Shown: positions 14,325-29,243 of the stretch, in pieces | Numbering within the stretch: position 1 is the first letter of the stretch | Layout: each line of letters begins with the position of its first letter | NCBI GenBank assembly: GCA_021796385.1 | Contig: JAJYXQ010000005.1 | Span: 21,398 to 85,397, forward strand | Length of the DNA: 64,000 bases | DNA from: Thermoplasmata archaeon | GTDB taxonomy: Archaea; Thermoplasmatota; Thermoplasmata; Lutacidiplasmatales; UBA184 | Reading direction: 5' to 3' | The notes under the pieces: generated by a model | What the model saw: the letters and a program-made list of their open reading frames with translations, nothing else | The model's database searches: none | What the model was told of the DNA's origin: nothing | Position numbers and translations under genes: made by a program

Positions 14325-15107
14325 TCAGCCGATATATCCGAGATCTTCCCGGGGCTGGGACGCCTCGGGCTGGGGCGGGGCAAGCTTTGCCTCCGTCTCC
14401 CTCAGGCGCGACGCGATCCGGTCAATCTCGTGGGCCTTGGTCTCGAGGTCGGAAAGGTCGAACACGAGGTTCAAGACGCTCATGAGGATGCGGAGGACCG
14501 CCTCGGCGCTTCGAGGGTCTACAAAGTACCCGGAGGTCTCCCCCATGAGGCACACGCTCTCCATCTGATAGAGCTGACCAATGCCGAGGAAAAGACCGCT
14601 TGCACCAATGAGCCCGCTCCCGGGTTCGTTCTTCGAGAACACCACTCCGAGTTTCTTCATCATCTCCACACGGGCCGGGGAGGTGGCTGCGCCAAGGACC
14701 CGAGGGTTCTCGACCATGTGGCCCTGCGCGAACCCAGCGAGCGTGTACACCTCCTTCACTCCGAGTTGCGATACGACCTGGAGTATCCGGTCTGTGAGCT
14801 CGTATTGTCCTTCCGGACTCAGGCCTTGGTAGTCGCCGACAAGAATGAGGAGATCGCGCTGCTTCGGGGACTTCGCCTTGTAATAGTAGAGGTCGTTCGA
14901 TACCATCCGGATGACCCCGTCATCCCCCACGTACACCTGGGGAGGAAAATACTTCGAGTAGATCGTGGCGTACTTCGTCGCGGAGATGGCATCCTTGAGG
15001 TAGTCCGCAGCCAGCTTCGCCACATTGCCGAGCCCGGGCAGACCCACGATGAGTACCGGCTTGTTCAATTCCACTTTGGTCAGGACATTCACGACAACAT
15101 CGTCCAT
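14325..15107 (-). CDS. PAC2-family proteasome assembly chaperone (PbaA/PbaB-like)
   Basis: NKPVLIVGLPGLGNVAKLAADYL is the N-terminal signature of PF09754-type archaeal PAC2 proteins. 260 aa. Confidence 0.65.
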   Translation of the reverse strand: MDDVVVNVLTKVELNKPVLIVGLPGLGNVAKLAADYLKDAISATKYATIYSKYFPPQVYVGDDGVIRMVSNDLYYYKAKSPKQRDLLILVGDYQGLSPEGQYELTDRILQVVSQLGVKEVYTLAGFAQGHMVENPRVLGAATSPARVEMMKKLGVVFSKNEPGSGLIGASGLFLGIGQLYQMESVCLMGETSGYFVDPRSAEAVLRILMSVLNLVFDLSDLETKAHEIDRIASRLRETEAKLAPPQPEASQPREDLGYIG

Positions 15108-15335: not shown

Positions 15336-17579
15336 TCATTGAACGCGGGTCTCGCTTCCTGACACTGAATCCTCCCCGCAAAGCGCCCGCCGAAGCACCC
15401 GATCCGCTTGCAGATACAGGACGCCGCCGAGGACGAAACCGGTGAGCAAGTTGATCAAGGCTATCTTGCGGGACGATACCAGGGCCGACCTTACCTCTCC
15501 CCTCCGGATCTGAGACAATGACCGGGCCCAACTAAGATACAACAAGAGCGCCAAAGTCAACAGGAATCCTTCTCCCGCCAAGATCCATCCGAACCCCACG
15601 GAGGGAGACACCGAGTAGCCCGTGATCCAAAGGTACCGCAGGTCAAGGAGGGTGAACGCGAAGAAGGAGAGGACCTGCACGCCGAACCCAAAGAGCGCCC
15701 AACGCCCCGCGGTCCGTAACGCGCGAACTCGATTCGCTTCTTGCCGATGCCCCGCCTCCCCGGGCGCTCCGGTCTTGCGCCTTCGGAAGCCCCAAGCGGC
15801 CGTAGCGAGAACAGCGATGATCGCCAGGACCGGGAAGCCGAGGGTAAGATATCCGAAGTTGCTCGGGAGCCCAAAAAGAGTGGCCGGAGGGGAAGCGGGA
15901 ACGTACACCAAGAGCAGAGTCCCAGGCCCCCTTACGGAAAGTTGCTCCCCGGAGACCGTCAGGTTCCCTGTGGCCTCAAGCGAGCCGAGGGTCATTCCTG
16001 GGCACCCCCCTGGGACCAGACTGAAATCACCCGACGTAAGTGCGAAAGATCCCCCACCGAGAGCCTTCGAGGATCCCATGGCTACGGCTGTACCTGAGCA
16101 GGAGACGGGGAGGATGACGACTCCGAGCCCCACGAAGGGGGTTTGAGAATACACGGCGGTGACGTTACCCGGTCCGAGCACGATTAGGGAGCTGTTTGGG
16201 TCGGTCGTGGCTGTCACCGAGATGTCCCCTTCGTAGCTCCAGGCTTGGAAGCGGTAACCGGGACATGGGGTGGCAACTATGCTGTAGGAACCTGCGGGGG
16301 CAGTATAGACCAAGGCCGGTCCCCCAGCGGCCGAGGTCACATGAGGGTCTCCACAAGCGTCGGGGACGGATGAAAGTCCCAGGGCGAATCCGAACATCCG
16401 GTTACCCTTCGTCGCATTCTGGAATGCGTAGAATACCGGCGTCCTCCCGGAGTAATACTGGAGCAGAGCTGACGGGTTCCCGGGTGGGGGGGCGGATTGG
16501 GCGAACAGGTCGGTGTAGAACATTCCGACCCCCTGGGCGCCGATGTAGCTCAAGAACGCATAGACCGTCTGGACCCAGGGGACATCGAGGGATATCATGC
16601 TGGGTTCGAAGACCGAACTCCCCGCCGAGCTCCAAGCTTCCGGCACCCAGACCTGCTTGCCTCCCGTCCCTTCCTTCGCTAGGAACGTGAGCGTGTTCTC
16701 GAAGTCGCAGACCCCATAGATATCGAACCCGAGGAAATCAAGACCCGGCATGGACCGGGCCGCCTCGAGGTAGCTCAACTCCGTGCTGGCGCCCCCGGTG
16801 TACAGAGAGGAGGCTGCAACGGCCACACCGACGACGGTCTGTGGGGACACCTCCCGAACGACCGATATCAGTTGCTGCGTGAGGTCGACCCAGTTCGTCA
16901 CGGATTCGACCGAGGGGTTCCATGGGTAGCCCTGGACCATCGGATAGTACCAGCCGGGTTCCTTGACGAGCACATAATAATCGGGATGGTAGAGCTTGGC
17001 CAGGGTCGTTTCCCGTTGGACCGCGGCGGTCACGAAGTCCGACCAGGAAAGCGGGTGGTGCCAATACGTTTCGGAGGCAGAATCTGCGATCATAAGCGCG
17101 AGCCCATCGGACCGGATCTGGGCTACTACCGCATCGAGCTCTGCGATGAGTGATGCGTTCTGTTCCAGCCAAGGCTGAAAGTTGAGATCGATCCGTATCA
17201 CCTGGGCCCCAGATTCCTTCAGCATCGCGAGGTCCGCGAGGATGGCGTTGAGCGAACTCCCGGGGGATTCTGGATTCCCGTAGCTCGCCGCCATGAGGAC
17301 GGCTCCCGAGACCAAGGGCACGGGAGGATGTTGGGACCACTTCTGCTCTTGGCTCGAAAGCCACGAGGCGGTGAGGGGTTCATAGGTACAGTTCCCGGGT
17401 TCGAGTTGCGTGGTGGCCCCCGGTGAAACGATTGCCCCGAGGAGCGAACCCAACGTGAGCAACCCGAGCGCCAACACCGCCCACCCGACCCAGGGCGCCC
17501 GAGGGGGTGCGAACGGGTGCTCGCGAAGACGGGAGACGGATGGAGGGCTCACGAACTTTAGGAGACGACGCCTCCGCAC
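15336..17579 (-). CDS. membrane-anchored TIM-barrel glycoside-hydrolase-like protein (N-terminal signal anchor, GH5-like ectodomain, C-terminal 4-5 TM bundle)
   Basis: 747 aa. The N-terminal hydrophobic anchor is WVGWAVLALGLLTLGSLLGAIV. The central part reads like a cellulase-superfamily barrel (IRIDLNFQPW...YYVLVKEPGWY...FLGFDIYG). The C-terminus has several TM helices (VLAIIAVLATAAWGF..., ALFGFGVQVLSFFAFTLL...). The functional call is weak. Confidence 0.45.
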   Translation of the reverse strand: MRRRRLLKFVSPPSVSRLREHPFAPPRAPWVGWAVLALGLLTLGSLLGAIVSPGATTQLEPGNCTYEPLTASWLSSQEQKWSQHPPVPLVSGAVLMAASYGNPESPGSSLNAILADLAMLKESGAQVIRIDLNFQPWLEQNASLIAELDAVVAQIRSDGLALMIADSASETYWHHPLSWSDFVTAAVQRETTLAKLYHPDYYVLVKEPGWYYPMVQGYPWNPSVESVTNWVDLTQQLISVVREVSPQTVVGVAVAASSLYTGGASTELSYLEAARSMPGLDFLGFDIYGVCDFENTLTFLAKEGTGGKQVWVPEAWSSAGSSVFEPSMISLDVPWVQTVYAFLSYIGAQGVGMFYTDLFAQSAPPPGNPSALLQYYSGRTPVFYAFQNATKGNRMFGFALGLSSVPDACGDPHVTSAAGGPALVYTAPAGSYSIVATPCPGYRFQAWSYEGDISVTATTDPNSSLIVLGPGNVTAVYSQTPFVGLGVVILPVSCSGTAVAMGSSKALGGGSFALTSGDFSLVPGGCPGMTLGSLEATGNLTVSGEQLSVRGPGTLLLVYVPASPPATLFGLPSNFGYLTLGFPVLAIIAVLATAAWGFRRRKTGAPGEAGHRQEANRVRALRTAGRWALFGFGVQVLSFFAFTLLDLRYLWITGYSVSPSVGFGWILAGEGFLLTLALLLYLSWARSLSQIRRGEVRSALVSSRKIALINLLTGFVLGGVLYLQADRVLRRALCGEDSVSGSETRVQ

Positions 17580-19189: not shown

Positions 19190-22100
19190 ATGTATCTGAA
19201 GTGCCTGCGGGTTCGCAACTTCAAGTCGTTCGCCGGGAGTTCAGAGATCCCCTTCTCCCCGGGCTTCACCGGCGTTGCGGGACCGAACGGGATGGGGAAG
19301 TCCAACATCTCTGACGGTATCCTTTTTGTCTTGGGACCGCCGAGCTCCAAGGCCCTCCGGGCTGACCGTCTCACCCGGCTCTTCTTCGATGGGGGAAAGC
19401 AGGGGAAGCCCGCCACGGAGTGCGAGGTCTCCCTCGTCTTTGACAACTCGGACCGTAGCCTCGCCATCGACTCCAATGAGGTCGAGTTCACCCGGTACGT
19501 GAAGCTGGCCCCCGGGAACCCCGAGGGTTATTATTCCTACTTTTATGTGAACGGACGGCGGAGCACCCAAGGCGAGATGGATGCCTTGCTCTCGAAGGCC
19601 CGGCTCTCGGGCGATGGATACAACATTGTCCAGCAAGGGGAGATCAATCGTATCATCGTTATGAGCCCCTTGGAACGGCGGGGACTGCTCGAAAAACTCG
19701 CGGGCATCTCCCAGTACGACGACGACCTTGCGCGGGCCGCCGAGAAGCAAGCAAGCCTCGAAGCCAACATGGCCCAGATCGCCACCCTCCTCACAGAGGT
19801 CGAAAGGCATCTTTCTGAGCTGGACGGGCAGCGTACCCAGGCCCTCCGCTACAAGGACCTGAACGACCAGAAGCATCGCTGTGAGGCGGCGCTTGCCCAC
19901 ATGAACCTCACGCGGCTGAAGGCCGATGTCTCGAGCAACGAAAAGAAGATGGCCGACATCTCCACCGAGGTGGAGAAGCTCAAGGCCCGGCTCGAGGAAC
20001 TCCGGGCCGAGAAGGGGCGTCTCCAAGGGGAGATCAACGCCATCGACTCGGAGATCGCCCGGCGGGGCGGGGAAGAGGCGGTCCGGATCAAGAAGGAGAA
20101 GGACGAGCGGACCCTTGATGTGGGTCGGCTCCAGATGGCCCTCGAGAACGTCCAGCAGAGCGTGTCCACGCTCACGCAAGAGAAAGGAGCGTTCGAGAAG
20201 GAGCTCTCTTCGAAACGGAAGGCCCTCAAGGAACTCGAGCTCAAGGCCAAATCCTTGGACGGGGAAGTCCGGGAGATAGAGAAGAAGGTCAAGGCTCATG
20301 CCGAGACGCTCTCGACCACCAGTGAGACCCGAAGCATATCGCAGAAGGCCGTTGAGCTCAAGAAGTCCATCGTGTCCAATGAACAGGACCAGCGCGAGAA
20401 GCAGACGGCCTGGGAAACGGCCCTCAAGACCGGCGAGGCGCGCAAGGCGGAGATGGCCTCCCTTGAGCGCGAGAAGGCTCTCGCCGAGGAGGACTTCTCC
20501 CACCGCCAAGCGGAGGTCAAGGACCTCGAATTCCGTGTCAAGAATGCCTCGAGTTCCCGGAAGGGGAGTGAGCAATCCGTCGGCACGCTCACACCGGAAC
20601 TCCACCAACTTCGCGCCCGGGAGAAGACCCTGACCGCAAGGGCAGAGAACTTGGCCGCGGAACTGCTTGAGTTGAACCGGGCCTTTTCGGCCCTGGATGC
20701 CCGGCTGAAGGAACGGGGCAACCAAGGGGGTTCCTTGGCCCTGGCCACTGACTTCCTCCTGACCCAGGGAAACCTGGGAAAGATCTCGGGTATCAAGGGA
20801 AAGGTCGAGGATTTGCTCTCCTATGAGCCGGACCTCGCCACGGCAGTGGCAGTCGCGGGGGGGAACCGTCTACAGGCGTTGGTGGTGGACACCGATGCTA
20901 CGGCCCAGGCCTGCATCGAACTCCTGAACAAGGAAAGGAAGGGGCGGGTCACGCTCCTCCCGCTCAACAAGATGCTCCCGGCGCGTCCCAAAGGCAAGTC
21001 ACTGGTGGTCCAGAAGTCTCCCGGATGCCGGGGCTTTGCCCTCGATCTCGTGCACTTCGATGCGAGCCTGGATGCGGTGATGTCATTCGTGTTCGGCGAG
21101 ACACTGATCATGGACTCGTTGGAGAATGCCCGGAAGGTGATGGGGGGCGTTCGCCTGGCCACTCTTCGGGGAGAACTCATCGAAGCTTCGGGTGCCATGA
21201 CGGGAGGTTCGCTCTCCGGATCAGGAAAGGCTCCCAAAGACAACCCGGCCACGCTCCGCGCGATCTCGGAGAACCTGGGACAGAAGACGGAAGAGGAAGC
21301 CCAGGTGAAGGCCGAGCTGAAGACGGTGACCGAACGGCTCCGCGTGGTCTCCGAGGAGCTGGCCCGGCACTCGGTCCGGGCTTCCAGCAGTGCATCGACA
21401 CTGGAGGAGCTCAACAAGGAGCTCGAGAAGGCCCGGGAGGCCCACAAAGCGGCCGACCAGCGGTTGAAGCAGCTGGCGACCCGGTTCGAGACGATCTCCC
21501 GGCAATCCGTTGAGGCCGAAGAGCGGGCCAAAGAGATCAACGAGGCACTTAGCCAGCTCAAGGCCTCCCACGAGCAGCTCGAGAAAGAATACTTGGAGAA
21601 CCTCCCGAACGCCCTATCTTCGCGGGTCAAGAAGCTCCAGGAAGAGGGCGAAGAACTGGGCAATGAACGTCTTCGGTTGCACCGGGAGCTCGAGGGAGCC
21701 CGGACCGCGCTCACCTCGGGCGAAGAGGTGTTGAACGCGCGTCAGAAGGAGTACGAAACCCTGGTTGCGGTACTCGCCGCGAAGACCAAAGAGGCCAAAG
21801 AGACCGAATCCGCCCTCCACGCGGCACAGGAGAAGCTCCAGGCGATCGAGAAGGTCATCGAAGCGCAAAGCACGGCCTCTCGCGCGCTGAACACCAAGAA
21901 GGATGGCTTCACCCAACAGTTCACCCAGGTGTCGACCGAGGAGGGAAAGGTCGCGACGAAGCTGCAGACCCAAGAGGGACTCCTTGCGGACTTCCGGATA
22001 CGCCTTGAGACCGCCCGGAAGGCAGTCGAGGATGCCTTGGCCGCTGCGCAGGATGTCCCTGAGCCCGGGGAGGACCTCAAAGGGAAGACCTTCGAGGAGA

Positions 22101-22816
22101 TCCGGCGGCGGATCGAATCGCTTTCCGGTGAGATCACGGCGCTCGGGGCCGTCAACACATTGGCCTTGGAGCAATACGACGCAGAGAAGAAGCGCATGGA
22201 CGAGTTCGAAGAGCAGGTCCATCGACTCAAGGATGAGCGGCAGGGCCTGCTTTCCCTCGTGGCCCAGCTTGAGGACAAGAAGCGTGCCCGATTGAAGGAT
22301 GTGATCACCGGGGTTGGCGAAGGCTACCGGACGATCTATTCGGAACTTTCCGGTGGGGGAGAAGGGGAGCTTGAGATGGAGGTCCCGGAGGACCCGCTCA
22401 AGGGCGGCCTGCTCATCCGGGCCCGACCCGTGGGGAAGAAGGCCGCCCGGCTCGAACAACTCTCGGGTGGGGAAAAGTCCCTCGCCTCGCTGGCCTTCAT
22501 CTTTGCCCTCCAGCGTTATGATCCTTCCCCGCTCTATGTGCTGGACGAGGTCGACATGAGCCTGGATGGCATCAATGCCGAGAACATCGGCCGGATGCTG
22601 AGGAGGAACTCCACCAAGGCCCAATTCATCGTGATCTCCCTACGGAAGGTCACCCTCAAGTGGGCCGAACACCTCTTCGGGGTCACCCAGCGGGGCGATG
22701 GCATCTCCCACGTAGTCGGATTGCGGTTGGATGACATCGTGGACGTCGACGAGCGGGAACTGTCGAAGGTGGCCGCCCACGAGGCGATGGCGCCCCGGGC
22801 GCCGGAGCTCGCATGA
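19190..22816 (+). CDS. smc: chromosome segregation protein SMC
   Basis: 1208 aa. N-terminal Walker A FTGVAGPNGMGKSNISDGILFVLG, long coiled coils, a central hinge (GKISGIKGKVEDLLSYEPDLATAVAVAGGNRLQALVVD) and a C-terminal signature LSGGEKSLASLAFIFAL plus Walker B LYVLDEVD. A GGAGGG Shine-Dalgarno lies upstream. Confidence 0.95.
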   Translation: MYLKCLRVRNFKSFAGSSEIPFSPGFTGVAGPNGMGKSNISDGILFVLGPPSSKALRADRLTRLFFDGGKQGKPATECEVSLVFDNSDRSLAIDSNEVEFTRYVKLAPGNPEGYYSYFYVNGRRSTQGEMDALLSKARLSGDGYNIVQQGEINRIIVMSPLERRGLLEKLAGISQYDDDLARAAEKQASLEANMAQIATLLTEVERHLSELDGQRTQALRYKDLNDQKHRCEAALAHMNLTRLKADVSSNEKKMADISTEVEKLKARLEELRAEKGRLQGEINAIDSEIARRGGEEAVRIKKEKDERTLDVGRLQMALENVQQSVSTLTQEKGAFEKELSSKRKALKELELKAKSLDGEVREIEKKVKAHAETLSTTSETRSISQKAVELKKSIVSNEQDQREKQTAWETALKTGEARKAEMASLEREKALAEEDFSHRQAEVKDLEFRVKNASSSRKGSEQSVGTLTPELHQLRAREKTLTARAENLAAELLELNRAFSALDARLKERGNQGGSLALATDFLLTQGNLGKISGIKGKVEDLLSYEPDLATAVAVAGGNRLQALVVDTDATAQACIELLNKERKGRVTLLPLNKMLPARPKGKSLVVQKSPGCRGFALDLVHFDASLDAVMSFVFGETLIMDSLENARKVMGGVRLATLRGELIEASGAMTGGSLSGSGKAPKDNPATLRAISENLGQKTEEEAQVKAELKTVTERLRVVSEELARHSVRASSSASTLEELNKELEKAREAHKAADQRLKQLATRFETISRQSVEAEERAKEINEALSQLKASHEQLEKEYLENLPNALSSRVKKLQEEGEELGNERLRLHRELEGARTALTSGEEVLNARQKEYETLVAVLAAKTKEAKETESALHAAQEKLQAIEKVIEAQSTASRALNTKKDGFTQQFTQVSTEEGKVATKLQTQEGLLADFRIRLETARKAVEDALAAAQDVPEPGEDLKGKTFEEIRRRIESLSGEITALGAVNTLALEQYDAEKKRMDEFEEQVHRLKDERQGLLSLVAQLEDKKRARLKDVITGVGEGYRTIYSELSGGGEGELEMEVPEDPLKGGLLIRARPVGKKAARLEQLSGGEKSLASLAFIFALQRYDPSPLYVLDEVDMSLDGINAENIGRMLRRNSTKAQFIVISLRKVTLKWAEHLFGVTQRGDGISHVVGLRLDDIVDVDERELSKVAAHEAMAPRAPELA

Positions 22817-23808
22817 CCGTTTCGGAGCAGGAGGCGAAGGAGATCGCGCTGAACACCATCCCGGTTCCCCGCGAAGCCGCCCAGCACGTGCTCGAGTACC
22901 TTTCCTGGAACAAGGCGCTCATCGGAGAGGACCTCGCCACTACCCAGCGCCTCGACCGGTACCTCGAAATGGTGAAGGGGCTCCGGGAAGGGGTCCACGT
23001 GGTCATCGAGGATCCGTACGAGAAGGCCACGGCCCTTCTCTTTGAACTGGTCCTATCCGAAGAGTTCAATCCCTGGGCGATCGACCTCGTACGGTTCACC
23101 GAGCTCTACCTCGAACGGATCCAGGCGATCGGGATGGATTTCCCAGTTGCGGGCCGGCTCCTCTACATGGCTTGGAACATCCTCTTCCTCCAGTCAAAGG
23201 TGGTGCTTGAGTCCCATCGTGAGCCCGAACCCTCCCCGGAGACCTCCCTGGATGGAGGGGGGATCGATGAAGGATATCTTTCCGACCTGACTACGGCCGA
23301 AGATATTGATGCCACGTCGACCATTTTGACTTCGGAGTCCCCGCCGTTCGAATCCATGGTGCGCCACCTCGAGACGCGACCCGTGAGCCTGATGGAGCTC
23401 GAGCACGCCTTCCGGGACGCCGAAATCGAGGCCCGCCGGGCCTTGGAGCAAGAGGCGGCCCGGGAGAAGCTCCGGGCCGTGCAAGGTGCGCTATCGCACT
23501 CCGTTCTCGTCCATGGGGAGGAAGTACCCATTTGTGACCTGAACACCGTCTGGTCGGTCGTCGAGCGTCACCCCGTGGGAGAGGCCTTTTCGTTCGCAGA
23601 GGTCCTGCAGGGTGTGACCTCTCGGGAGAAGGTGGTCTCGCTCTTCCTCTCGCTCCTTTTCCTCGTGCGCGGGGGCGCTGTGACCCTCCAGCAGAAGTCG
23701 ATCGGGGGAGGGCCGGTGGAGGTCATCCGAGCCCTGGAGCAAATGGACCCGGCCCGGATCCTGATCGGAGCGGACGCAGCGGTGCCTCGATCGGGTATGG
23801 CCAACTGA
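22813..23808 (+). CDS. scpA: segregation and condensation protein A (kleisin ScpA)
   Basis: Start overlaps the smc stop (ATGA). NPWAIDLVRFTELYLERIQAIGMDFPVAGRLLYMAWNILFLQSKVVL is the ScpA N-terminal domain. Confidence 0.85.
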   Translation: MTVSEQEAKEIALNTIPVPREAAQHVLEYLSWNKALIGEDLATTQRLDRYLEMVKGLREGVHVVIEDPYEKATALLFELVLSEEFNPWAIDLVRFTELYLERIQAIGMDFPVAGRLLYMAWNILFLQSKVVLESHREPEPSPETSLDGGGIDEGYLSDLTTAEDIDATSTILTSESPPFESMVRHLETRPVSLMELEHAFRDAEIEARRALEQEAAREKLRAVQGALSHSVLVHGEEVPICDLNTVWSVVERHPVGEAFSFAEVLQGVTSREKVVSLFLSLLFLVRGGAVTLQQKSIGGGPVEVIRALEQMDPARILIGADAAVPRSGMAN

Positions 23809-23812
23809 AGGC

Positions 23813-24424
23813 ATGGCGGACGAAGCGCCCATCCGGGACGAGTTGCCGCTCAAGGTAGAGGCGCTCCTCTTTGCGGTCGGGAAGCCCCTGACCGTCCATG
23901 AGCTTTCGCGTGCCCTCGGCACGGAGGACTGGAAAGCCGTTCAGGTCGCCTTGAAGAAGCTCCATCATGCCTACGCGTCGCGCCTCACCTCGCTCGAGGT
24001 GGCCCGGGCGGGGGACGGATGGATCATCCAGGTCCGCAAGGCCTACCTACCGACCGCCCGCACCGTGGCGGCGCCGGAACTTCCCAAGAAGTTGCTCAAG
24101 ACCTTGGCCCTCATCGCTTATCATCAACCGATCCTCCAAAGTCGCCTGGTGCGGATGCTGGGGGACTCCGCCTACGACGATGTTCCCCGGCTTCGCGATC
24201 TCGGCTTCGTGCGGGCGAGCGAGAAATCCAACACGCTCGAACTGACCACGAGCACCCGGTTCGCCGAGTACTTCGGCTTCGACACGACGGACCGGGCGAA
24301 GCTCAAGAAGCTGCTCGGCCGGAACCTAGGAATCCCCGACGCTCCGGAGACGAGCGAGGTAGAGACCCCGGAGGAGAAGCATGCCGGCCCCGGAGATGTC
24401 ACACCGGGGGAAGGACGCGCTTGA
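23813..24424 (+). CDS. scpB: segregation and condensation protein B (ScpB)
   Basis: LKVEALLFAVGKPLTVHELSRALGTEDWKAVQVALKKLHHAYASRLTSLEVARAGDGWIIQ contains the tandem winged helices of ScpB. Confidence 0.85.
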   Translation: MADEAPIRDELPLKVEALLFAVGKPLTVHELSRALGTEDWKAVQVALKKLHHAYASRLTSLEVARAGDGWIIQVRKAYLPTARTVAAPELPKKLLKTLALIAYHQPILQSRLVRMLGDSAYDDVPRLRDLGFVRASEKSNTLELTTSTRFAEYFGFDTTDRAKLKKLLGRNLGIPDAPETSEVETPEEKHAGPGDVTPGEGRA

Positions 24425-27400
24425 GTTCCTCGAGCCCCGTGCGGAGCCGCTCGAGGGCGGAAGGGTAGTCGCCCCGGTTCTTGAGACCCACCGCCTCGTC
24501 CATGAGGACCGTGATCTGGGTCGTGTCGACACGCTCGGCCTCGGCCTGCTCGATCCGGGAGACGAGGAGGCTTTGGAGGTTGATGAGTTCCGTCTGCCAC
24601 GCCTTGCGCTGGTTGAGCGCCTGTTCGATTCCCATGATCGCCTGGGCGGCCGCCACGAAGTTGTTCTCGGAGAGGAGGGACTCGGCCTCGCTCGTCTTCT
24701 CCTCGAGACCCGCCACCGAGACGTTCAGCTGGTCCCGGGCCCGCTGCAACTTCTTGTGGAACTCTTTGAGCTTCTCGGGCACGGCGGCGCGGATCATCGA
24801 GTCGAGGAGGACGGACGCCTCATGCGTCTTTCCCAGGGCACCGTTCAGGTTCGACTCCTGCAGGGCGTTCTTCGCCTCGGATATCTTCTCGATGATGGGA
24901 GTGAAATCGAGACCGAGCCGTTCGCAAAGCATCCCCAGCTCGGCCAACCGGTCGGACTCTGCGTCGATATACCGGGTATAGAACTGATTGATCTCGGTCT
25001 CTAGGCTCTTCCAGGTCTCGGCAACGGCCAGGAGATGGTTCTCGCGTAGGTTGTCCATCACGACGTCGGCAAGCACTTGGAGCTCTTCCAGCTTGGAATG
25101 TTCGTACGAGGCGGGGATCTTCTGGAGGCGCTCCTGCTGTTCGTGGAGGAATGCGACCGTGGCCCGGTTGACCTCACGGTAGGCCTGATCGATCGCCGTC
25201 GCCATCGCCGGATAATCTTCCCGGGTCTTGGCCTGGTGGGCCTGCTCGAGAGCGGTTGCCAGCCGAGCATGGGCTTCCTCCCCAGAAGGAAGAAGGTCCA
25301 GGAAGCCAGAGGCCTCCGTGAGCATGCGGGTGAAGGCTTCGCTCACGGTCTGGCGCATCGGTTCCCAGGCTTGTTTCGCCAAGGTCTCGGCCTCCCCGTA
25401 CTCACCCCGGGTGATGTCCGCCCGGGCCTTCGAGATCAACGACCGGTCCACATCGACCCCGAGTCCGGCAGCGGTCTCAGCCAGCTCTTCGACCCGGCGG
25501 ATGGACGATTCGGCCCGTCCCTGGAACTTCGCCGCCGACTGGAGATGCTCGCTGACGCGGAGCACCTGCTCCAGGACCTCAGCATAATGCCCCTCTTCAA
25601 AGATCTTCCGCACTTCGGTGATCTCCTCCGCAAGGTTGGGTGCGATCAGACCGGCCTTGATCGCCTCGTTCACCTTCCCTTCAAGGATCCCGAGCGAATT
25701 CTCGGCGATGGAATGCTGGAGCTCGATCCGCTCCAGTTCGCTCTCGGCCTTTCCCACGAGCTGGAGGATGTCCTGGGTGTTGTTCGTGGCCACTTTGTTC
25801 CGAGCCTGGGCCAGGTAGTTCTCGGCGGTCATCGTCAATGTACCCTCCATCTTGGCACGCGTGATGACGTTCTGGAGATTGTTGAGCAGGGTGTTAAGAT
25901 GCTCCTTGACCAAGGCGAGCGCGGAATTTCGGACATCTTGGGAAATGTCGAGGGCGACGGCGAACTGGGTCCCGGCGATCTTGGCGGCGACCTCGTCCAA
26001 CCGGGCTTGGTAGGCGATGACGTTAAGGTTCATCATCTCGGCCTGGGAAACGATTTCCTTGGCCGAAGCGAGTGCACGTTGCGCGGCCTCTTGGAGGGCT
26101 CGGTTCTGGGAAAAGTCCCGATGAACCTGCGCAAGGATCTTTGCGACACCGACCGGAGCGGCAGGGGACTTGAGCTTCTCATCGGCCTCATGCACGAGGC
26201 CTTCCGCGGCACGGATATCGATGCCTTGGTCGCTAGCGATCTTGAGCTCGGACTGCAGGGACTTTATGTTGTCCTGAAGGACGGGCCGTACCCGGTCCAG
26301 CACGCGGTCCATGAGCTCTTCGATGAGGAGCTTGACCTTCGAGGGGTTCGCTCCGGGAAGTTGATCCTGGAGGCTGGCGATCCGCTCTTCCCATTCTACG
26401 GTAGGGACCCCGAGCTGCGAGAGACCCTCCAGCACCCCTCGGAGGACATCCAACAACATCCGGCCATCGGTGCGCACCACAAGGTCATCCATTGACGATT
26501 GGATGTTGGCGAGCTGAGCCTCCGCCTCTTCGAACGCGAGCTTCTGGTAGGACTCCCTGACACCGGCGATGCGAGCGGTGACGGCACGCAGCTCTTCCAC
26601 GGGGGAGCCCTTCTTGCGCAGTGCGGTGATCTGGGCCACAATCTGCCCGATACGTTCCACGATCTTCTGAGAGCGTTGTTGGAGGGCCACGGCCTGTTCC
26701 TTCGCCCGGACCGCCGTCCTGTACGCTTCGAGGTAGCGACCGGCCTGGAACAGGTCGCGGGCCTGGTTCTGGAGTTCCCGGACATCCGGCGGCTCCGAGA
26801 TCATTTTGGATATCTCCACGATCGAGAGCTTGGCCCCGGCGAGGGCGTCTTCCGCCCGGGACATCGACAGCTGGGTGACGCGGCTGGACAAATCCTGCGC
26901 GGAACGCAGGGCCCGGAGCACGTTGCCGGTGTCCATGATCTGCCGGATGTCTCCTATCTCCCGGGTTAGGTCGGCGGTGTCATAGTCCATGGCCCGAAGG
27001 TTCTGCTCCCCGGTACCGAGGTCCTCGATCGCCTTGCCGACCTCGTTGGCGAAGGTGCCCGCGGTCTCCCGCTCCACCCGAACCAGGGCATCCATCGAAG
27101 CGATGAACTGGTCGATAGAGTCGGGCTGGGTCTTGACTTCAGCGATACGCTCGCTGGTCTGTTTGCGGGCCTCCTCGTTCGTCAAGGCCTCCAAGTCCTG
27201 ATTGAGCGTCTCTAACCTTTTGGCAAGCCCCTCCCGGACGGGGCCCTGAAGCTTTACGTTGATGTCGGAGAGGAGCTCGATCACCCCGGGTATGTTCCCG
27301 GAAGAGAGCATCATCTTGAGGTCGTCCAGACGAGAACGGACCTCGTTTGGAACCGCCATCCCGAGGTCAACCATCATGGTCAGACACCGCTCCGCCTGAT

Positions 27401-28805
27401 CGATCTGCCCTCGGAAGAACGAAGTGCTCTGGCGGCCGAGCGTCTTAGCCCCTTCGCGCAAGATGGTCTTCGCTCCCGCGAAGTCCCCGCGGGCACTGGC
27501 TGCCTCGGCTTTCGTCGTGAACTCCTGAAGGTCCACGACCGATAAGCCGGCCACTTCCAACTTGAAGAGAAGGCCTCGGAACTCTTCGACCTCGCTCCGG
27601 GCGATCTCGACGTCCTCCATCAACGTCTTCGCTCGCTCCAGGGCGGCGGATGAGGAATCGAGGGCACGCGCGTACTCCTTCGCATTGAGCAACGCTCGGG
27701 TCTGGTTCATCCCTTCCACGATGCCGTCGATGGGCCGCTTGACAGCGCGAGCCTGCTCGAGATAGGGACGTATCTCTTCCACTTGGCTAAAGATCACCCG
27801 AAGTATGGGGCCTTCCACCATCTCTCCCAAGCGAGAGATGCGGGACACGCACTCTCCGGGGGGCAAGGTCGTGAGGTTCTTCTCCAAGAAATCGAGCTCC
27901 CCGGATACTTCCGTTACGTCCGTCCCGCCCTCACGCATCCGCTCGACGACCGCTCGGAGCTTCTCCAGTCGTCCCGAAAACTTGGGACGGAGCGATTCGG
28001 AGAGTTTGGCAAGGGCGGTGACGAGTTGGTTCCCCCGCTCGTCAATCTCGGTGAAATGGACCTGGTCGATCCCACTCAGGGCGTCATCGATTCCGGCCGT
28101 GTCAATCCCTTCCTCCTTGGCGACCTTTCGGGCTTGGGTGAGCTCCTGGGCCAGGGTGGACAAGCGGTCGGTCACTTTGGGGACCTTGGTCCGGAACTGG
28201 GACTCTAAGCATTCCGAAGCCTCGGTAAGCTTGCTCTGGTCGATAAGGGCAAGGCAGTCGGCCAGGGACCCGAGCGCCGCGGAGACCTCCCCTTCGGGCA
28301 GAGCCCAAGTGATGACGGCGGATACCCTCTCTTTGAGCAGGGACCCCGCCTTCTCCTCCACAGCACTCAGTGTGGTGTCGATGGAGGCGACTTCGCGGAA
28401 GGATTCGGCGAAAGATCCCTCCTTGGCGAGACCTTTCGCCTTTTCGATGTTGTCTCCGATACCCATGCTGTCCGGGATTCCGACCGAAACCAAGGTGGCA
28501 CGACGTTGGGCGAGTTTCGTTGCTCTCTCCTCGAGGGTCTGTGTGAACTTGGCGGTGATCTCACCGGAAAGGGCAACGGCCAGGCGATCCGCCTCCGACC
28601 ACGTTGGGGGGGAGGCGAACTTGTCTATCTCCGCCCGTTTCTCACCGAGACCATCCATCTGGAGGCCGAGGTCCTTGACGAGCGACATTAGCTTGTCCAG
28701 CTTGGCCTTGTCCGCCTCGAACGTGCCCCGTTGCCGGCGCATTTCCTCGGCGCGTGCGACCAGGTTGCGCTGGCGCAAGAACTCGCTACCGCCTAGCCCG
28801 CCCAT
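24399..28805 (-). CDS. giant (1468 aa) coiled-coil protein with about 14 degenerate repeats; no ATPase motifs; function unknown
   Basis: Ala/Glu/Leu/Arg-rich with no Walker A/B, no TM and no Cys. About every 70-110 aa it repeats a TPR-A-helix-like motif of the form G-[RDE]-Y-x-x-A-x(3)-A-x(2)-A (FQAGRYLEAYRTAVRAKEQA, FEEGHYAEVLEQVLRVSE, ITRGEYGEAETLAKQAWE, SARGDFAGAKTILREGAK, KTREDYPAMATAIDQAYRE, KNRGDYPSALERLRTGLEE and others). Its 3' end overlaps scpB convergently by 26 nt. Confidence 0.7.
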   Translation of the reverse strand: MGGLGGSEFLRQRNLVARAEEMRRQRGTFEADKAKLDKLMSLVKDLGLQMDGLGEKRAEIDKFASPPTWSEADRLAVALSGEITAKFTQTLEERATKLAQRRATLVSVGIPDSMGIGDNIEKAKGLAKEGSFAESFREVASIDTTLSAVEEKAGSLLKERVSAVITWALPEGEVSAALGSLADCLALIDQSKLTEASECLESQFRTKVPKVTDRLSTLAQELTQARKVAKEEGIDTAGIDDALSGIDQVHFTEIDERGNQLVTALAKLSESLRPKFSGRLEKLRAVVERMREGGTDVTEVSGELDFLEKNLTTLPPGECVSRISRLGEMVEGPILRVIFSQVEEIRPYLEQARAVKRPIDGIVEGMNQTRALLNAKEYARALDSSSAALERAKTLMEDVEIARSEVEEFRGLLFKLEVAGLSVVDLQEFTTKAEAASARGDFAGAKTILREGAKTLGRQSTSFFRGQIDQAERCLTMMVDLGMAVPNEVRSRLDDLKMMLSSGNIPGVIELLSDINVKLQGPVREGLAKRLETLNQDLEALTNEEARKQTSERIAEVKTQPDSIDQFIASMDALVRVERETAGTFANEVGKAIEDLGTGEQNLRAMDYDTADLTREIGDIRQIMDTGNVLRALRSAQDLSSRVTQLSMSRAEDALAGAKLSIVEISKMISEPPDVRELQNQARDLFQAGRYLEAYRTAVRAKEQAVALQQRSQKIVERIGQIVAQITALRKKGSPVEELRAVTARIAGVRESYQKLAFEEAEAQLANIQSSMDDLVVRTDGRMLLDVLRGVLEGLSQLGVPTVEWEERIASLQDQLPGANPSKVKLLIEELMDRVLDRVRPVLQDNIKSLQSELKIASDQGIDIRAAEGLVHEADEKLKSPAAPVGVAKILAQVHRDFSQNRALQEAAQRALASAKEIVSQAEMMNLNVIAYQARLDEVAAKIAGTQFAVALDISQDVRNSALALVKEHLNTLLNNLQNVITRAKMEGTLTMTAENYLAQARNKVATNNTQDILQLVGKAESELERIELQHSIAENSLGILEGKVNEAIKAGLIAPNLAEEITEVRKIFEEGHYAEVLEQVLRVSEHLQSAAKFQGRAESSIRRVEELAETAAGLGVDVDRSLISKARADITRGEYGEAETLAKQAWEPMRQTVSEAFTRMLTEASGFLDLLPSGEEAHARLATALEQAHQAKTREDYPAMATAIDQAYREVNRATVAFLHEQQERLQKIPASYEHSKLEELQVLADVVMDNLRENHLLAVAETWKSLETEINQFYTRYIDAESDRLAELGMLCERLGLDFTPIIEKISEAKNALQESNLNGALGKTHEASVLLDSMIRAAVPEKLKEFHKKLQRARDQLNVSVAGLEEKTSEAESLLSENNFVAAAQAIMGIEQALNQRKAWQTELINLQSLLVSRIEQAEAERVDTTQITVLMDEAVGLKNRGDYPSALERLRTGLEELKRVLPPV

Positions 28806-28856
28806 GTTGCCGGAAGGAGAATGCCAGAGACCTATTCAAGCTCTGGCACTCGATGG

Positions 28857-29243
28857 TCAATCCACCTGGATCTGCCGCTTCCCCATCGTGGAAATGTACG
28901 GCACTTCCTGTCCGGGCCGCACCTTTTCACGCTGGGACTCGCCCACCTGCATGGTGAACGTTTCGTAGGTTTCCATATCCATGAGCTGCACCTCGCCCTC
29001 CGACATCGACAGCACCTGGGCGGTTCGCTTGTTGATGATGGGCACCTGGACCTTGTGCTTCACCGGGTAAACGACGGACCGCTTCGCCCCATCGAAGATG
29101 CCGACCACGTCGATGCGGGCCTTGGCTTCACCGTGCTTCCCGGGTTTTGACGTCTGGATGGAAAGGATTTTGCAGGGCTCGTTGTCCACCATCACGTATC
29201 GACCTTCTTTGAGTTCCCTAACCTCGGCCTGAGTCCACGCCAT
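28857..29243 (-). CDS. eif5a: translation initiation factor 5A (aIF-5A)
   Basis: 128 aa. [20 protein letters not shown] contains the hypusine-site Lys in the STSKTGKHGHAK-like loop. GGAGGTG lies 8 nt upstream of the ATG on the minus strand. Confidence 0.9.

Follow-up and report, generated by a model that had tools for sequence, protein, structure and literature searches.

We analyzed a 64,000-nucleotide stretch of the genome of a Thermoplasmata archaeon (contig JAJYXQ010000005.1, positions 21,398 to 85,397 of the forward strand; hereafter the window), in which a single giant gene encodes a helical-repeat protein of 1468 residues. The gene is flanked by aIF5A, which marks the DNA as archaeal, at its 5′ end and, in tail-to-tail orientation, by scpB at its 3′ end, and the spacer that separates it from aIF5A holds a perfect inverted repeat (Table 1). 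The encoded protein, which lacks a RING finger, represents one form of a family that has not been described before and whose labelled members come almost only from the Thermoplasmata/Thermoplasmatota. An earlier note on this DNA, made from the sequence by a model, had described the product as a degenerate-repeat coiled-coil protein and had raised the possibility of a role in chromosome or cell organization; its claims are taken up below where the evidence bears on them.

Table 1. Features of the giant-gene locus and of related loci. Coordinates are window positions unless a locus is named; aa, residues of the giant protein.
Feature	Position	Strand	Basis or remark
Giant helical-repeat gene	24399..28805	(-)	Open reading frame and translation; ATG start, 1468 codons
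N-terminal cap, aa 1-46	28668..28805	(-)	Single long helix (model H6-46); AlphaFold2 and family consensus
Tandem array, ~23 units of 62-64 aa (aa 47-1468)	24402..28667	(-)	Unit alignment, hidden Markov model, AlphaFold2 helix boundaries
Second conserved patch, aa 333-381	27663..27809	(-)	Family alignment, per-unit conservation
Five-unit segment with high-confidence model, aa 861-1172	25290..26225	(-)	AlphaFold2, 22-orthologue alignment
Most conserved unit (unit 16), aa 988-1051	25653..25844	(-)	Family alignments A4 and A5; per-unit conservation
Overlap of convergent 3′ ends, giant gene/scpB	24399..24424		26 nt; coordinates
scpB	23813-24424	(+)	Pfam SMC_ScpB, 96.8 bits
aIF5A	28857-29243	(-)	51 nt upstream of giant gene, same strand
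Palindrome TGCCAGAG-N11-CTCTGGCA	28822..28848	(-)	51-nt aIF5A/giant-gene spacer; perfect 8-bp inverted repeat
747-aa open reading frame	15336-17579	(-)	Conserved in relatives, 56-97% identity
Ubiquitin-like/E2-like region, examples	L027:1552-2238 and L027:1210-1506	(-)	Among ten RING loci in L024-L038

The giant open reading frame (ORF) is a genuine gene under purifying selection. It forms one uninterrupted frame from an ATG start, as the earlier note had described. The translation predicts a protein of 161.8 kDa with an isoelectric point (pI) of 5.07 and a net charge of -50. Leucine (11.9%), alanine (11.9%), glutamate (10.9%), and arginine (7.4%) dominate its composition, and these were the four residues that the note had named. 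Its statement that ATPase, metal-binding, and transmembrane motifs are absent also held: no Pfam or NCBIfam domain was found in the protein, nor any transmembrane segment, the most hydrophobic 19-residue Kyte-Doolittle window reaching 1.03. Long chance ORFs do arise in high-GC genomes, and several shadow ORFs overlap the giant ORF on the opposite strand, so the frame could in principle be spurious or decaying within a GC-rich genome. The conservation data refute this explanation, to which we give virtually no chance. Two orthologues with 73% and 62% identity are 1468 and 1467 residues long and practically free of indels; the ratios of nonsynonymous to synonymous substitution against them are 0.16 and 0.26; the GC fractions at the three codon positions are 0.665, 0.398, and 0.798, i.e., 0.80 at the third position against 0.40 at the second; and 111 homologous clusters exist. 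The ORF was intact in relatives, with none of the frameshift loss that the note had named as refuting evidence.

Behind the N-terminal cap, which is conserved across the family with the consensus M...YL....L.K.LEEKA.E, the units of the array follow one another head to tail. Each unit opens with a G-h-x-h loop, in many copies G-[IVL]-x-[IVT], and continues with a short helix of ~11-16 residues, a turn of 2-3 residues, and a long helix of ~36-42 residues; the turn between the helices reads G-x-[FY] in the best-kept copies. A unit of 63 residues equals nine heptads, and a BLOSUM autocorrelation of the protein peaked at lags of 7 (4.1 standard deviations) and 62 residues (2.9 standard deviations). 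A hidden Markov model (HMM) of the unit detects 22 domains in the protein. This 63-residue repeat is statistically real and goes beyond chance. In cross-validation, a unit HMM built on one half of the protein scored 21.3 bits on the other half, compared with 1.0 ± 2.0 bits (maximum 7.6) for shuffled sequences; the reverse direction gave 12.5 bits against 0.9 ± 1.9 (maximum 10.0), and the matches lay in the correct register. Cross-validation was used instead of pairwise hhalign comparisons of single units, which were insensitive with three-sequence profiles (probability <1%). In relatives with 14-30% identity, the matches of the unit HMM were spaced by 62, 63, or 64 residues or by exact multiples of these.

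These data redraw the repeat as first described. The earlier note had counted ~14 copies of a motif, G-[RDE]-[YF]-x2-A-x3-A-x2-A, at spacings of 70-110 residues; the array in fact holds ~23 units of 62-64 residues, and the strict motif occurs only twice, at residues 689 and 1134. The figure of ~14 is explained by the 13 of 22 units that retain F or Y at the helix-helix turn. The likeness to a tetratricopeptide repeat (TPR) was correctly seen, as G-x-Y-x-x-A following a G-h-D loop is present, and so was the overall picture of one real gene encoding a giant, all-helical protein, the repeats of which are confirmed here.

AlphaFold2 modelled residues 1-1200, given three sequences, as wholly helical, with a short and a long helix in nearly every unit (mean predicted local distance difference test score, pLDDT, 74; predicted template modelling score, pTM, 0.32). 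For the five-unit segment, an alignment of 22 orthologues gave a mean pLDDT of 90.3 and a pTM of 0.61, and the alternation of short and long helices recurred five times. Turns of 3 residues follow the short helices and loops of 5-7 residues follow the long ones; given these linker lengths, we infer that each short helix packs on the two long helices that flank it, touching the last part of the one before and the first part of the one after. Such packing would give a staggered, elongated rod of ~3 nm per unit and ~60-70 nm in total. The heptad signal at lag 7 is present in the sequence, the helices reach at most 41 residues, and the monomer is modelled confidently as hairpins. In place of the coiled-coil or fibrous protein first proposed, the models point to intramolecular hairpins of one short and one long helix. 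Foldseek searches of the PDB with the 1200-residue model returned only meaningless long-helix matches, e.g., to dynein and nucleoporins, and the five-unit model had no match at E < 0.1 in either the PDB or BFVD. The best PDB match had an E value of 0.14 with TM-scores of at most 0.25, the top entries being designed helical repeats, transmembrane helices of ABC transporters, CdvB2, and the BB0323 N-domain; the best BFVD match (E = 0.17) was not significant. Likewise, sequence-profile searches of the PDB with 3- and 22-sequence profiles reached E = 0.027 at best.

We searched for relatives exhaustively with HMMER, using a profile of residues 1-1200 against 1.84 billion representative sequences. 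This retrieved 111 clusters (50% identity) at E ≤ 1e-3, 63 at ≤1e-10, and 27 at ≤1e-30. Word-seeded searches had returned only the three closest clusters, low-complexity helical proteins swamping the candidates, and a second such search with an 11-sequence profile added no relatives. Full-length relatives align colinearly with the giant protein across upwards of 1100 residues, one of them pairing query 12-1196 with target 10-1189 (E values from 1e-283 to 1e-10). Query and target coordinates stay in step even at E ~1e-10; the units are therefore orthologous one by one, and the match is not a general likeness among repeats. Across 62 full-length members, the median length is 1494.5 residues (interquartile range 1461-1515), and unit order, unit length, and total length (~1450-1500 residues) are kept down to 14% identity. 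With its ~23 units, the window protein falls within the range that defines the family, namely ~20-23 units of 62-64 residues and a total of ~1400-1630 residues. The overall plan of the family is unusually rigid. One outlier, P0108, has 2055 residues and ~32 units.

The unit-16 peptide pattern and an 11-sequence alignment, applied to a single genome for each GTDB species, brought up 33 loci. Apart from two with doubtful labels, all lie in metagenome-assembled genomes (MAGs) of Thermoplasmata/Thermoplasmatota, including Lutacidiplasmatales, Saliniplasma, and Haladaptatiplasma, and the few members with a source name attached are called "hypothetical protein, Candidatus Thermoplasmatota archaeon." One doubtful locus, L008 (JAKBKR010000033.1), is 99% identical to the window and its record is titled "MAG: bacterium." The other, L032 (JBKHKA010000002.1), is titled Aenigmatarchaeota; it encodes a member of the RING-bearing branch described below, and its neighbouring genes are those also found at L037 and L039, two loci of Thermoplasmatota. 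These labels probably stem from mislabelling or mis-binning, and gene transfer is less likely.

Conservation is concentrated in particular units. The highest is found in unit 16, with a mean top-residue frequency of 0.495 compared to ~0.33 elsewhere. Residues 988-1030 carry the signature G-x-x-T-x-x-A-E-N...S-E-x-E-L-E-R-[VI]-E-L-Q; the window protein also conforms to the shorter form A-E-N...S-E-x-E-L-E-[RK]-[VI]-E-L-Q (AENYLAQARNK...AESELERIELQ, residues 994-1030). Among 64 sequences, Q1030 is invariant and E1021, E1023, E1025, and A994 are at least 90% conserved. Unit 16 is a candidate partner-binding patch. In the second patch, I338, R346, A352, P358, R370, L373, and A381 are conserved at 70% or more family-wide.

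The family divides according to its C-terminus. A C-terminal cysteine cluster occurs in 39 of 64 aligned full-length members. Four of the five RING-type members scanned matched Prok-RING_1 (PF14446), at 26.3, 28.2, 40.1, and 41.6 bits (cut-off 29.1), and in one of those scanned a CARDB-like beta domain was weakly indicated ahead of the finger (17.8 bits, below cut-off). No CxxC is present in the last 130 residues of the window protein, and the 18 clusters nearest to it lack one there as well; the window protein ends in helical units, not in a CARDB-like domain plus C4HC3-type finger, and carries two or three more C-terminal units than the RING-type members. RING-bearing proteins comprise ~20 units and an end module of ~175 residues (median 1505 residues), and RING-less ones ~23 units (median 1468 residues). 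These totals are nearly equal, as if the end module had been traded for roughly three helical units that together match it in length.

Two types of C-terminal tail were also seen. Many RING-type proteins have, after the RING, a basic-hydrophobic K-K-[RK]-[VL]-A-L-K-[IL] tail, such as KKRVALKI, and seven RING-less members end in F-W-P-F-[KR]-R-P; the tail-bearing members examined include P0042, P0054, P0062, and P0063, as well as P0025-P0027 and P0029-P0031. In sequence, both types resemble membrane-targeting or docking peptides. Residues 1461-1468 of the window protein, which ends …LKRVLPPV, form a weak version of the family tails. Proteins combining a zinc ribbon with helical repeats (labelled c14) lie near some RING-type loci; their match to the unit HMM was insignificant and they were not counted as family.

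In ten RING loci, the giant gene is preceded, at a distance of 140-340 nt, by a divergent gene whose product joins a ubiquitin-like domain to an E2-like domain, with scores of 45 bits for UQ_con, 29.5 for Rad60-SLD, and 26.4 for ubiquitin. Searches by tblastn with two of these fusion proteins covered the whole window and the 8 kb around each RING-less locus and found no counterpart in either. In the E2-like domain, the HPN motif is retained and R, K, Y, H, or S occupies the position of the catalytic cysteine, as judged against the reference sequence of human UBE2D2; the domain is therefore UEV-like. All ten copies share a conserved cysteine nearer the C-terminus. Past the fusion gene in these loci lie a gene for a small CDC48_N-domain protein and then trkA/trkH, and downstream of the giant gene are queH, in seven of the clustered RING-type loci, and a convergent aIF2alpha-S27e-L44e operon. 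The ubiquitin-like/E2-like neighbour set may constitute an undescribed ubiquitin-related module in Thermoplasmata. A RING together with a ubiquitin-like/E2-like protein lacking the catalytic cysteine would be unusual, possibly representing a non-catalytic relative of the ubiquitin machinery outside Asgard and Aigarchaeota.

The gene order around the giant gene changes with evolutionary distance. The tail-to-tail arrangement with scpB reported by the earlier note was confirmed, the overlap being exactly 26 nt, and an identical overlap was present in L001, L005, L007, and L009, the loci in which it was measured. The order aIF5A -> giant <- scpB-scpA-smc is shared by the window, L001-L007, and L009, with 62-73% identity between the giant proteins. 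L008 (99% identity) begins within the giant gene, so that only the scpB-scpA-smc side is visible, and L010 (33% identity) has the same gene order with a 16-nt gap instead of the overlap. In L011-L022 (24-30% identity), scp and smc are absent, a convergent 151-residue protein is encoded, and aIF5A lies directly upstream wherever that flank exists, whereas RING-type loci (18-22% identity) have neither scp/smc nor aIF5A nearby. A check of synteny beside scpB therefore came out positive in the close relatives L001-L010, i.e., those with at least 33% identity, and negative in the 24-30% and RING-bearing clades. Adjacency to aIF5A is deeper, being found in L001-L007, L009-L013, L016-L018, L021, and L022. 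On this comparison, the proximity of scpB and smc looks like a local, lineage-specific gene order and not a clue to function.

In the window, smc, scpA, and scpB form a tight operon (19190-24424, forward strand), with smc and scpA overlapping by 4 nt and scpA and scpB 4 nt apart. The clear ScpB encoded here is notable because archaeal Smc complexes are argued, in PMC7055376, to lack this kite subunit. At the position of scpB, L011-L023 encode a convergent protein of ~131-170 residues (e.g., L012:11838-12293, reverse strand) that begins …KARSGHILL… and contains PAGFN…FIFP…EFYF; it accompanies the RING-less clade at 24-30% identity and one RING-type locus (L023). This neighbour (labelled c7, from the A2 clade) had no match in Pfam, NCBIfam, or the PDB, and no copy in the window.

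In the spacer between aIF5A and the giant gene, the arms of the palindrome are identical in three species while the flanking sequence diverges. Its loop carries TTGAATA at -34 to -28 relative to the ATG of the giant gene, and the more distant loci of the A2 clade have a canonical TTTATAA box where the window clade has TTGAATA. The palindrome folds as RNA at -20.3 kcal/mol (z = -2.7) and is unique within the window. It may represent either a TATA box plus operator for a near-leaderless mRNA or an RNA hairpin or terminator after aIF5A. Judging from these elements, the giant gene seems to be served by a promoter separate from that of aIF5A.

We tentatively interpret the giant protein as a cytoplasmic scaffold rod of fixed length with position-specific binding patches, a predicted function whose chances we put a little short of even. 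According to this proposal, the hairpins would stack in staggered fashion into one long rod of ~60-70 nm that would act as a fixed-length scaffold or spacer and not as an enzyme. Partners would be bound through unit-specific conserved patches, chiefly that of unit 16 (residues 988-1034, with its ExELERxELQ motif). The rod of the sister branch would bear, at its C-terminus, the CARDB-like Ig-like domain, the Prok-RING finger, and the basic-hydrophobic tail, and would be paired with the product of the neighbouring ubiquitin-like and E2-like (UEV-like) fusion gene; in the window branch, this end module would be replaced by two or three helical units, leaving the scaffold function alone. The non-enzymatic and non-DNA-binding character of the protein is reflected in its net charge of -50, the absence of transmembrane segments, and the absence of sequence matches in Pfam, NCBIfam, PADLOC, and the PDB. 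Moreover, a single-copy protein of ~1500 residues that keeps its unit order, 63-residue unit, and length from ~70% to 14% identity points to a conserved architectural role, one that is named by no current database. To our knowledge, very few archaeal structural or scaffold proteins have been reported, and none of this size class in Thermoplasmata.

Several considerations weigh against this interpretation. The rod geometry is derived from helix and loop lengths, and the pTM of the 1200-residue model is only 0.32. Constancy of length could reflect shared ancestry with few indels instead of selection on length. The comparison of the two branches is unrooted, and the RING module may have been lost in the window branch or gained in the sister branch. 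Finally, the adjacencies to aIF5A and to the aIF2alpha operon hint at a role in translation that a scaffold would leave unexplained.

Other explanations draw on the gene neighbourhoods. The link to chromosome organization floated in the earlier note would make the giant protein a condensin accessory or chromosome-organizing fibre that acts with Smc-ScpA-ScpB, with the 26-nt overlap coupling their expression. While the tail-to-tail arrangement with scpB-scpA-smc is kept in the window, L001-L007, L009, and L010, it is gone from the loci at or below 30% identity (L011-L022) and from all RING-type loci, and the overlap itself is lost in L010; furthermore, the protein is acidic (net charge -50, pI 5.07) and has no DNA-binding or SMC-interacting domain in Pfam. 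A condensin adjacency this shallow, combined with an acidic and domain-less protein, gives a chromosome role no support; we consider it very unlikely, and the tempting label "condensin-associated" is removed as unsupported. Association with aIF5A reaches further, being same-strand and immediately upstream in every RING-less locus that retains the flank, down to 24-30% identity, and at RING-type loci the aIF2alpha-S27e-L44e operon is ~0.5 kb away. These neighbours would fit a translation-linked factor, tied to aIF5A here and to aIF2alpha/L44e/S27e in the other clade, such as a scaffold for ribosomes or polysomes. However, the giant gene has a promoter-like element of its own (TTTATAA in the A2 clade and a box resembling TATA in that of the window), the aIF2alpha operon runs towards the giant gene and not in the same direction, no RNA- or ribosome-binding domain was found with Pfam, and housekeeping neighbourhoods are often merely stable genome backbone. 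A function in translation is, on balance, quite improbable.

The C-terminal modules of the wider family bring in further explanations. If the rod recruited substrates for a giant E3-like machine of the RING type, and a separate protein contributed the RING in the window lineage, this would accommodate both the distant colinear homologues that end in Prok-RING_1 and the proximity of RING loci to the ubiquitin-like/E2-like fusion gene and the small CDC48_N protein. Such a ubiquitin-like, E3-type system is unlikely: the cysteine cluster is missing from all 19 clusters of the clade to which the window protein belongs, no homologue of the fusion protein is encoded anywhere in the window or in the 8 kb around RING-less loci, and R, K, Y, H, or S stands at the position of the catalytic cysteine in the E2-like domain. 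The lack of that cysteine makes conjugation chemistry doubtful even in the sister clade. A peripheral membrane skeleton with a spectrin-like function, in which rods lie under the membrane and are anchored by their short basic-hydrophobic C-terminal tails, is no likelier. In the models, the unit topology, with a short helix followed by a long one that runs on into the next unit, could give three-helix bundles like those of spectrin, and MinD-like tails are present in many RING-type (KKRVALKI) and seven RING-less (FWPF[KR]RP) members; conversely, the window tail, …LKRVLPPV, matches either motif poorly, and neither Pfam nor Foldseek gave a spectrin match. Elements of these ideas can be combined in a Thermoplasmata-specific cytoskeletal "ruler," i.e., a spectrin-like rod of fixed length with ~20-23 mini three-helix-bundle units. 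In the ancestor, one end of the rod would dock to membrane or partners via the Ig-like domain, RING, and basic tail, the RING being paired with a non-catalytic ubiquitin-like/UEV protein through a RING-E2-fold contact that serves for structural docking and not conjugation; without its RING, the form seen in the window would be derived from this. We regard this composite as rather doubtful. Whichever function applies to the scaffold rod that we favour, the gain for annotation is a definable new repeat family with a signature motif.

Elsewhere in the window, the 747-residue ORF had no NCBIfam match, and no Pfam match was recorded for it in a related locus. It adjoins a PAC2 (proteasome assembly chaperone-like) gene at 14325-15107.

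Comparison with known families bears out the earlier note's view that the giant protein cannot be assigned to any of them: no profile match to tape-measure, SMC/Sph-like, or S-layer proteins was found. The best Pfam match was TPR_4, whose 23.1 bits fall short of the 27-bit cut-off, and no single stretch passed by itself; NCBIfam and PADLOC gave no usable match, and PHROGs gave only phrog_3590, of unknown function, at 25 bits. No description of a giant helical-repeat family of this kind was found in the full-text literature searched. In local sequence, there is a resemblance to TPR proteins. From the short helix through the turn into the first part of the long helix runs the signature of the TPR A/B turn (L..G.Y..A...A..A), single units of relatives reach 35 bits for TPR_2 and 43.7 bits for ANAPC3, and both kinds of protein have the character of non-enzymatic binding scaffolds. 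However, the giant protein lies below every TPR cut-off, TPR solenoids are absent from its Foldseek matches, and its period of 62-64 residues (against 34) and second helix of ~40 residues (against ~14) exclude it from the TPR family.

In overall plan, the giant protein is reminiscent of spectrin, alpha-actinin, and the PRC1 rod. It shares with these a long helical tandem array, neighbouring units of which seem to be bridged by a long helix, as well as heptad patterning, the acidity of the rod, and a fixed number of units, and PRC1 and the spectrin-like domain of BB0323 were among its top, non-significant Foldseek matches. In contrast to the three-helix, 106-residue spectrin repeat, its unit has two helices and 63 residues; it has no spectrin match in Pfam, no Foldseek match at E < 0.1, and no actin-binding, EF-hand, or other terminal domain. 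Phage tape-measure proteins are likewise very long, helical, repeat-containing, and of a fixed, length-determining size. Nevertheless, no PHROG tape-measure profile matched, the tape-measure proteins among the BFVD matches had E values of 0.38-0.84 and TM-scores below 0.3, and the giant gene is conserved in single copy across an archaeal class, in a chromosomal housekeeping context (aIF5A, EF-1alpha, S10, smc, scpAB) without phage genes. Smc, Sph1/2, and Rad50 are comparable in size and helical content, and the giant gene adjoins smc. Pfam recovers SMC_N (205 bits) and the hinge (97 bits) in this neighbouring smc product, but neither Walker A/B heads nor a hinge in the giant protein, which, with loops every 63 residues, therefore lacks the long uninterrupted antiparallel coiled-coil arms of SMC-like proteins.

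The relationship to Prok-RING_1 proteins is of a different kind. PF14446 comprises prokaryotic RING fingers linked to ubiquitin-like systems. True homologues of the giant protein, colinear over more than 1100 residues, terminate in this domain and neighbour the gene that fuses ubiquitin-like and E2-like domains, whereas the window protein has no RING, CARDB-like domain, or cysteine cluster; a Prok-RING fused to a helical array of ~1270 residues was not found described in the searchable literature. Taken together, these comparisons identify a new repeat family in which familiar elements, namely heptad helices and a hairpin of TPR type, are combined into an unfamiliar unit of 63 residues.

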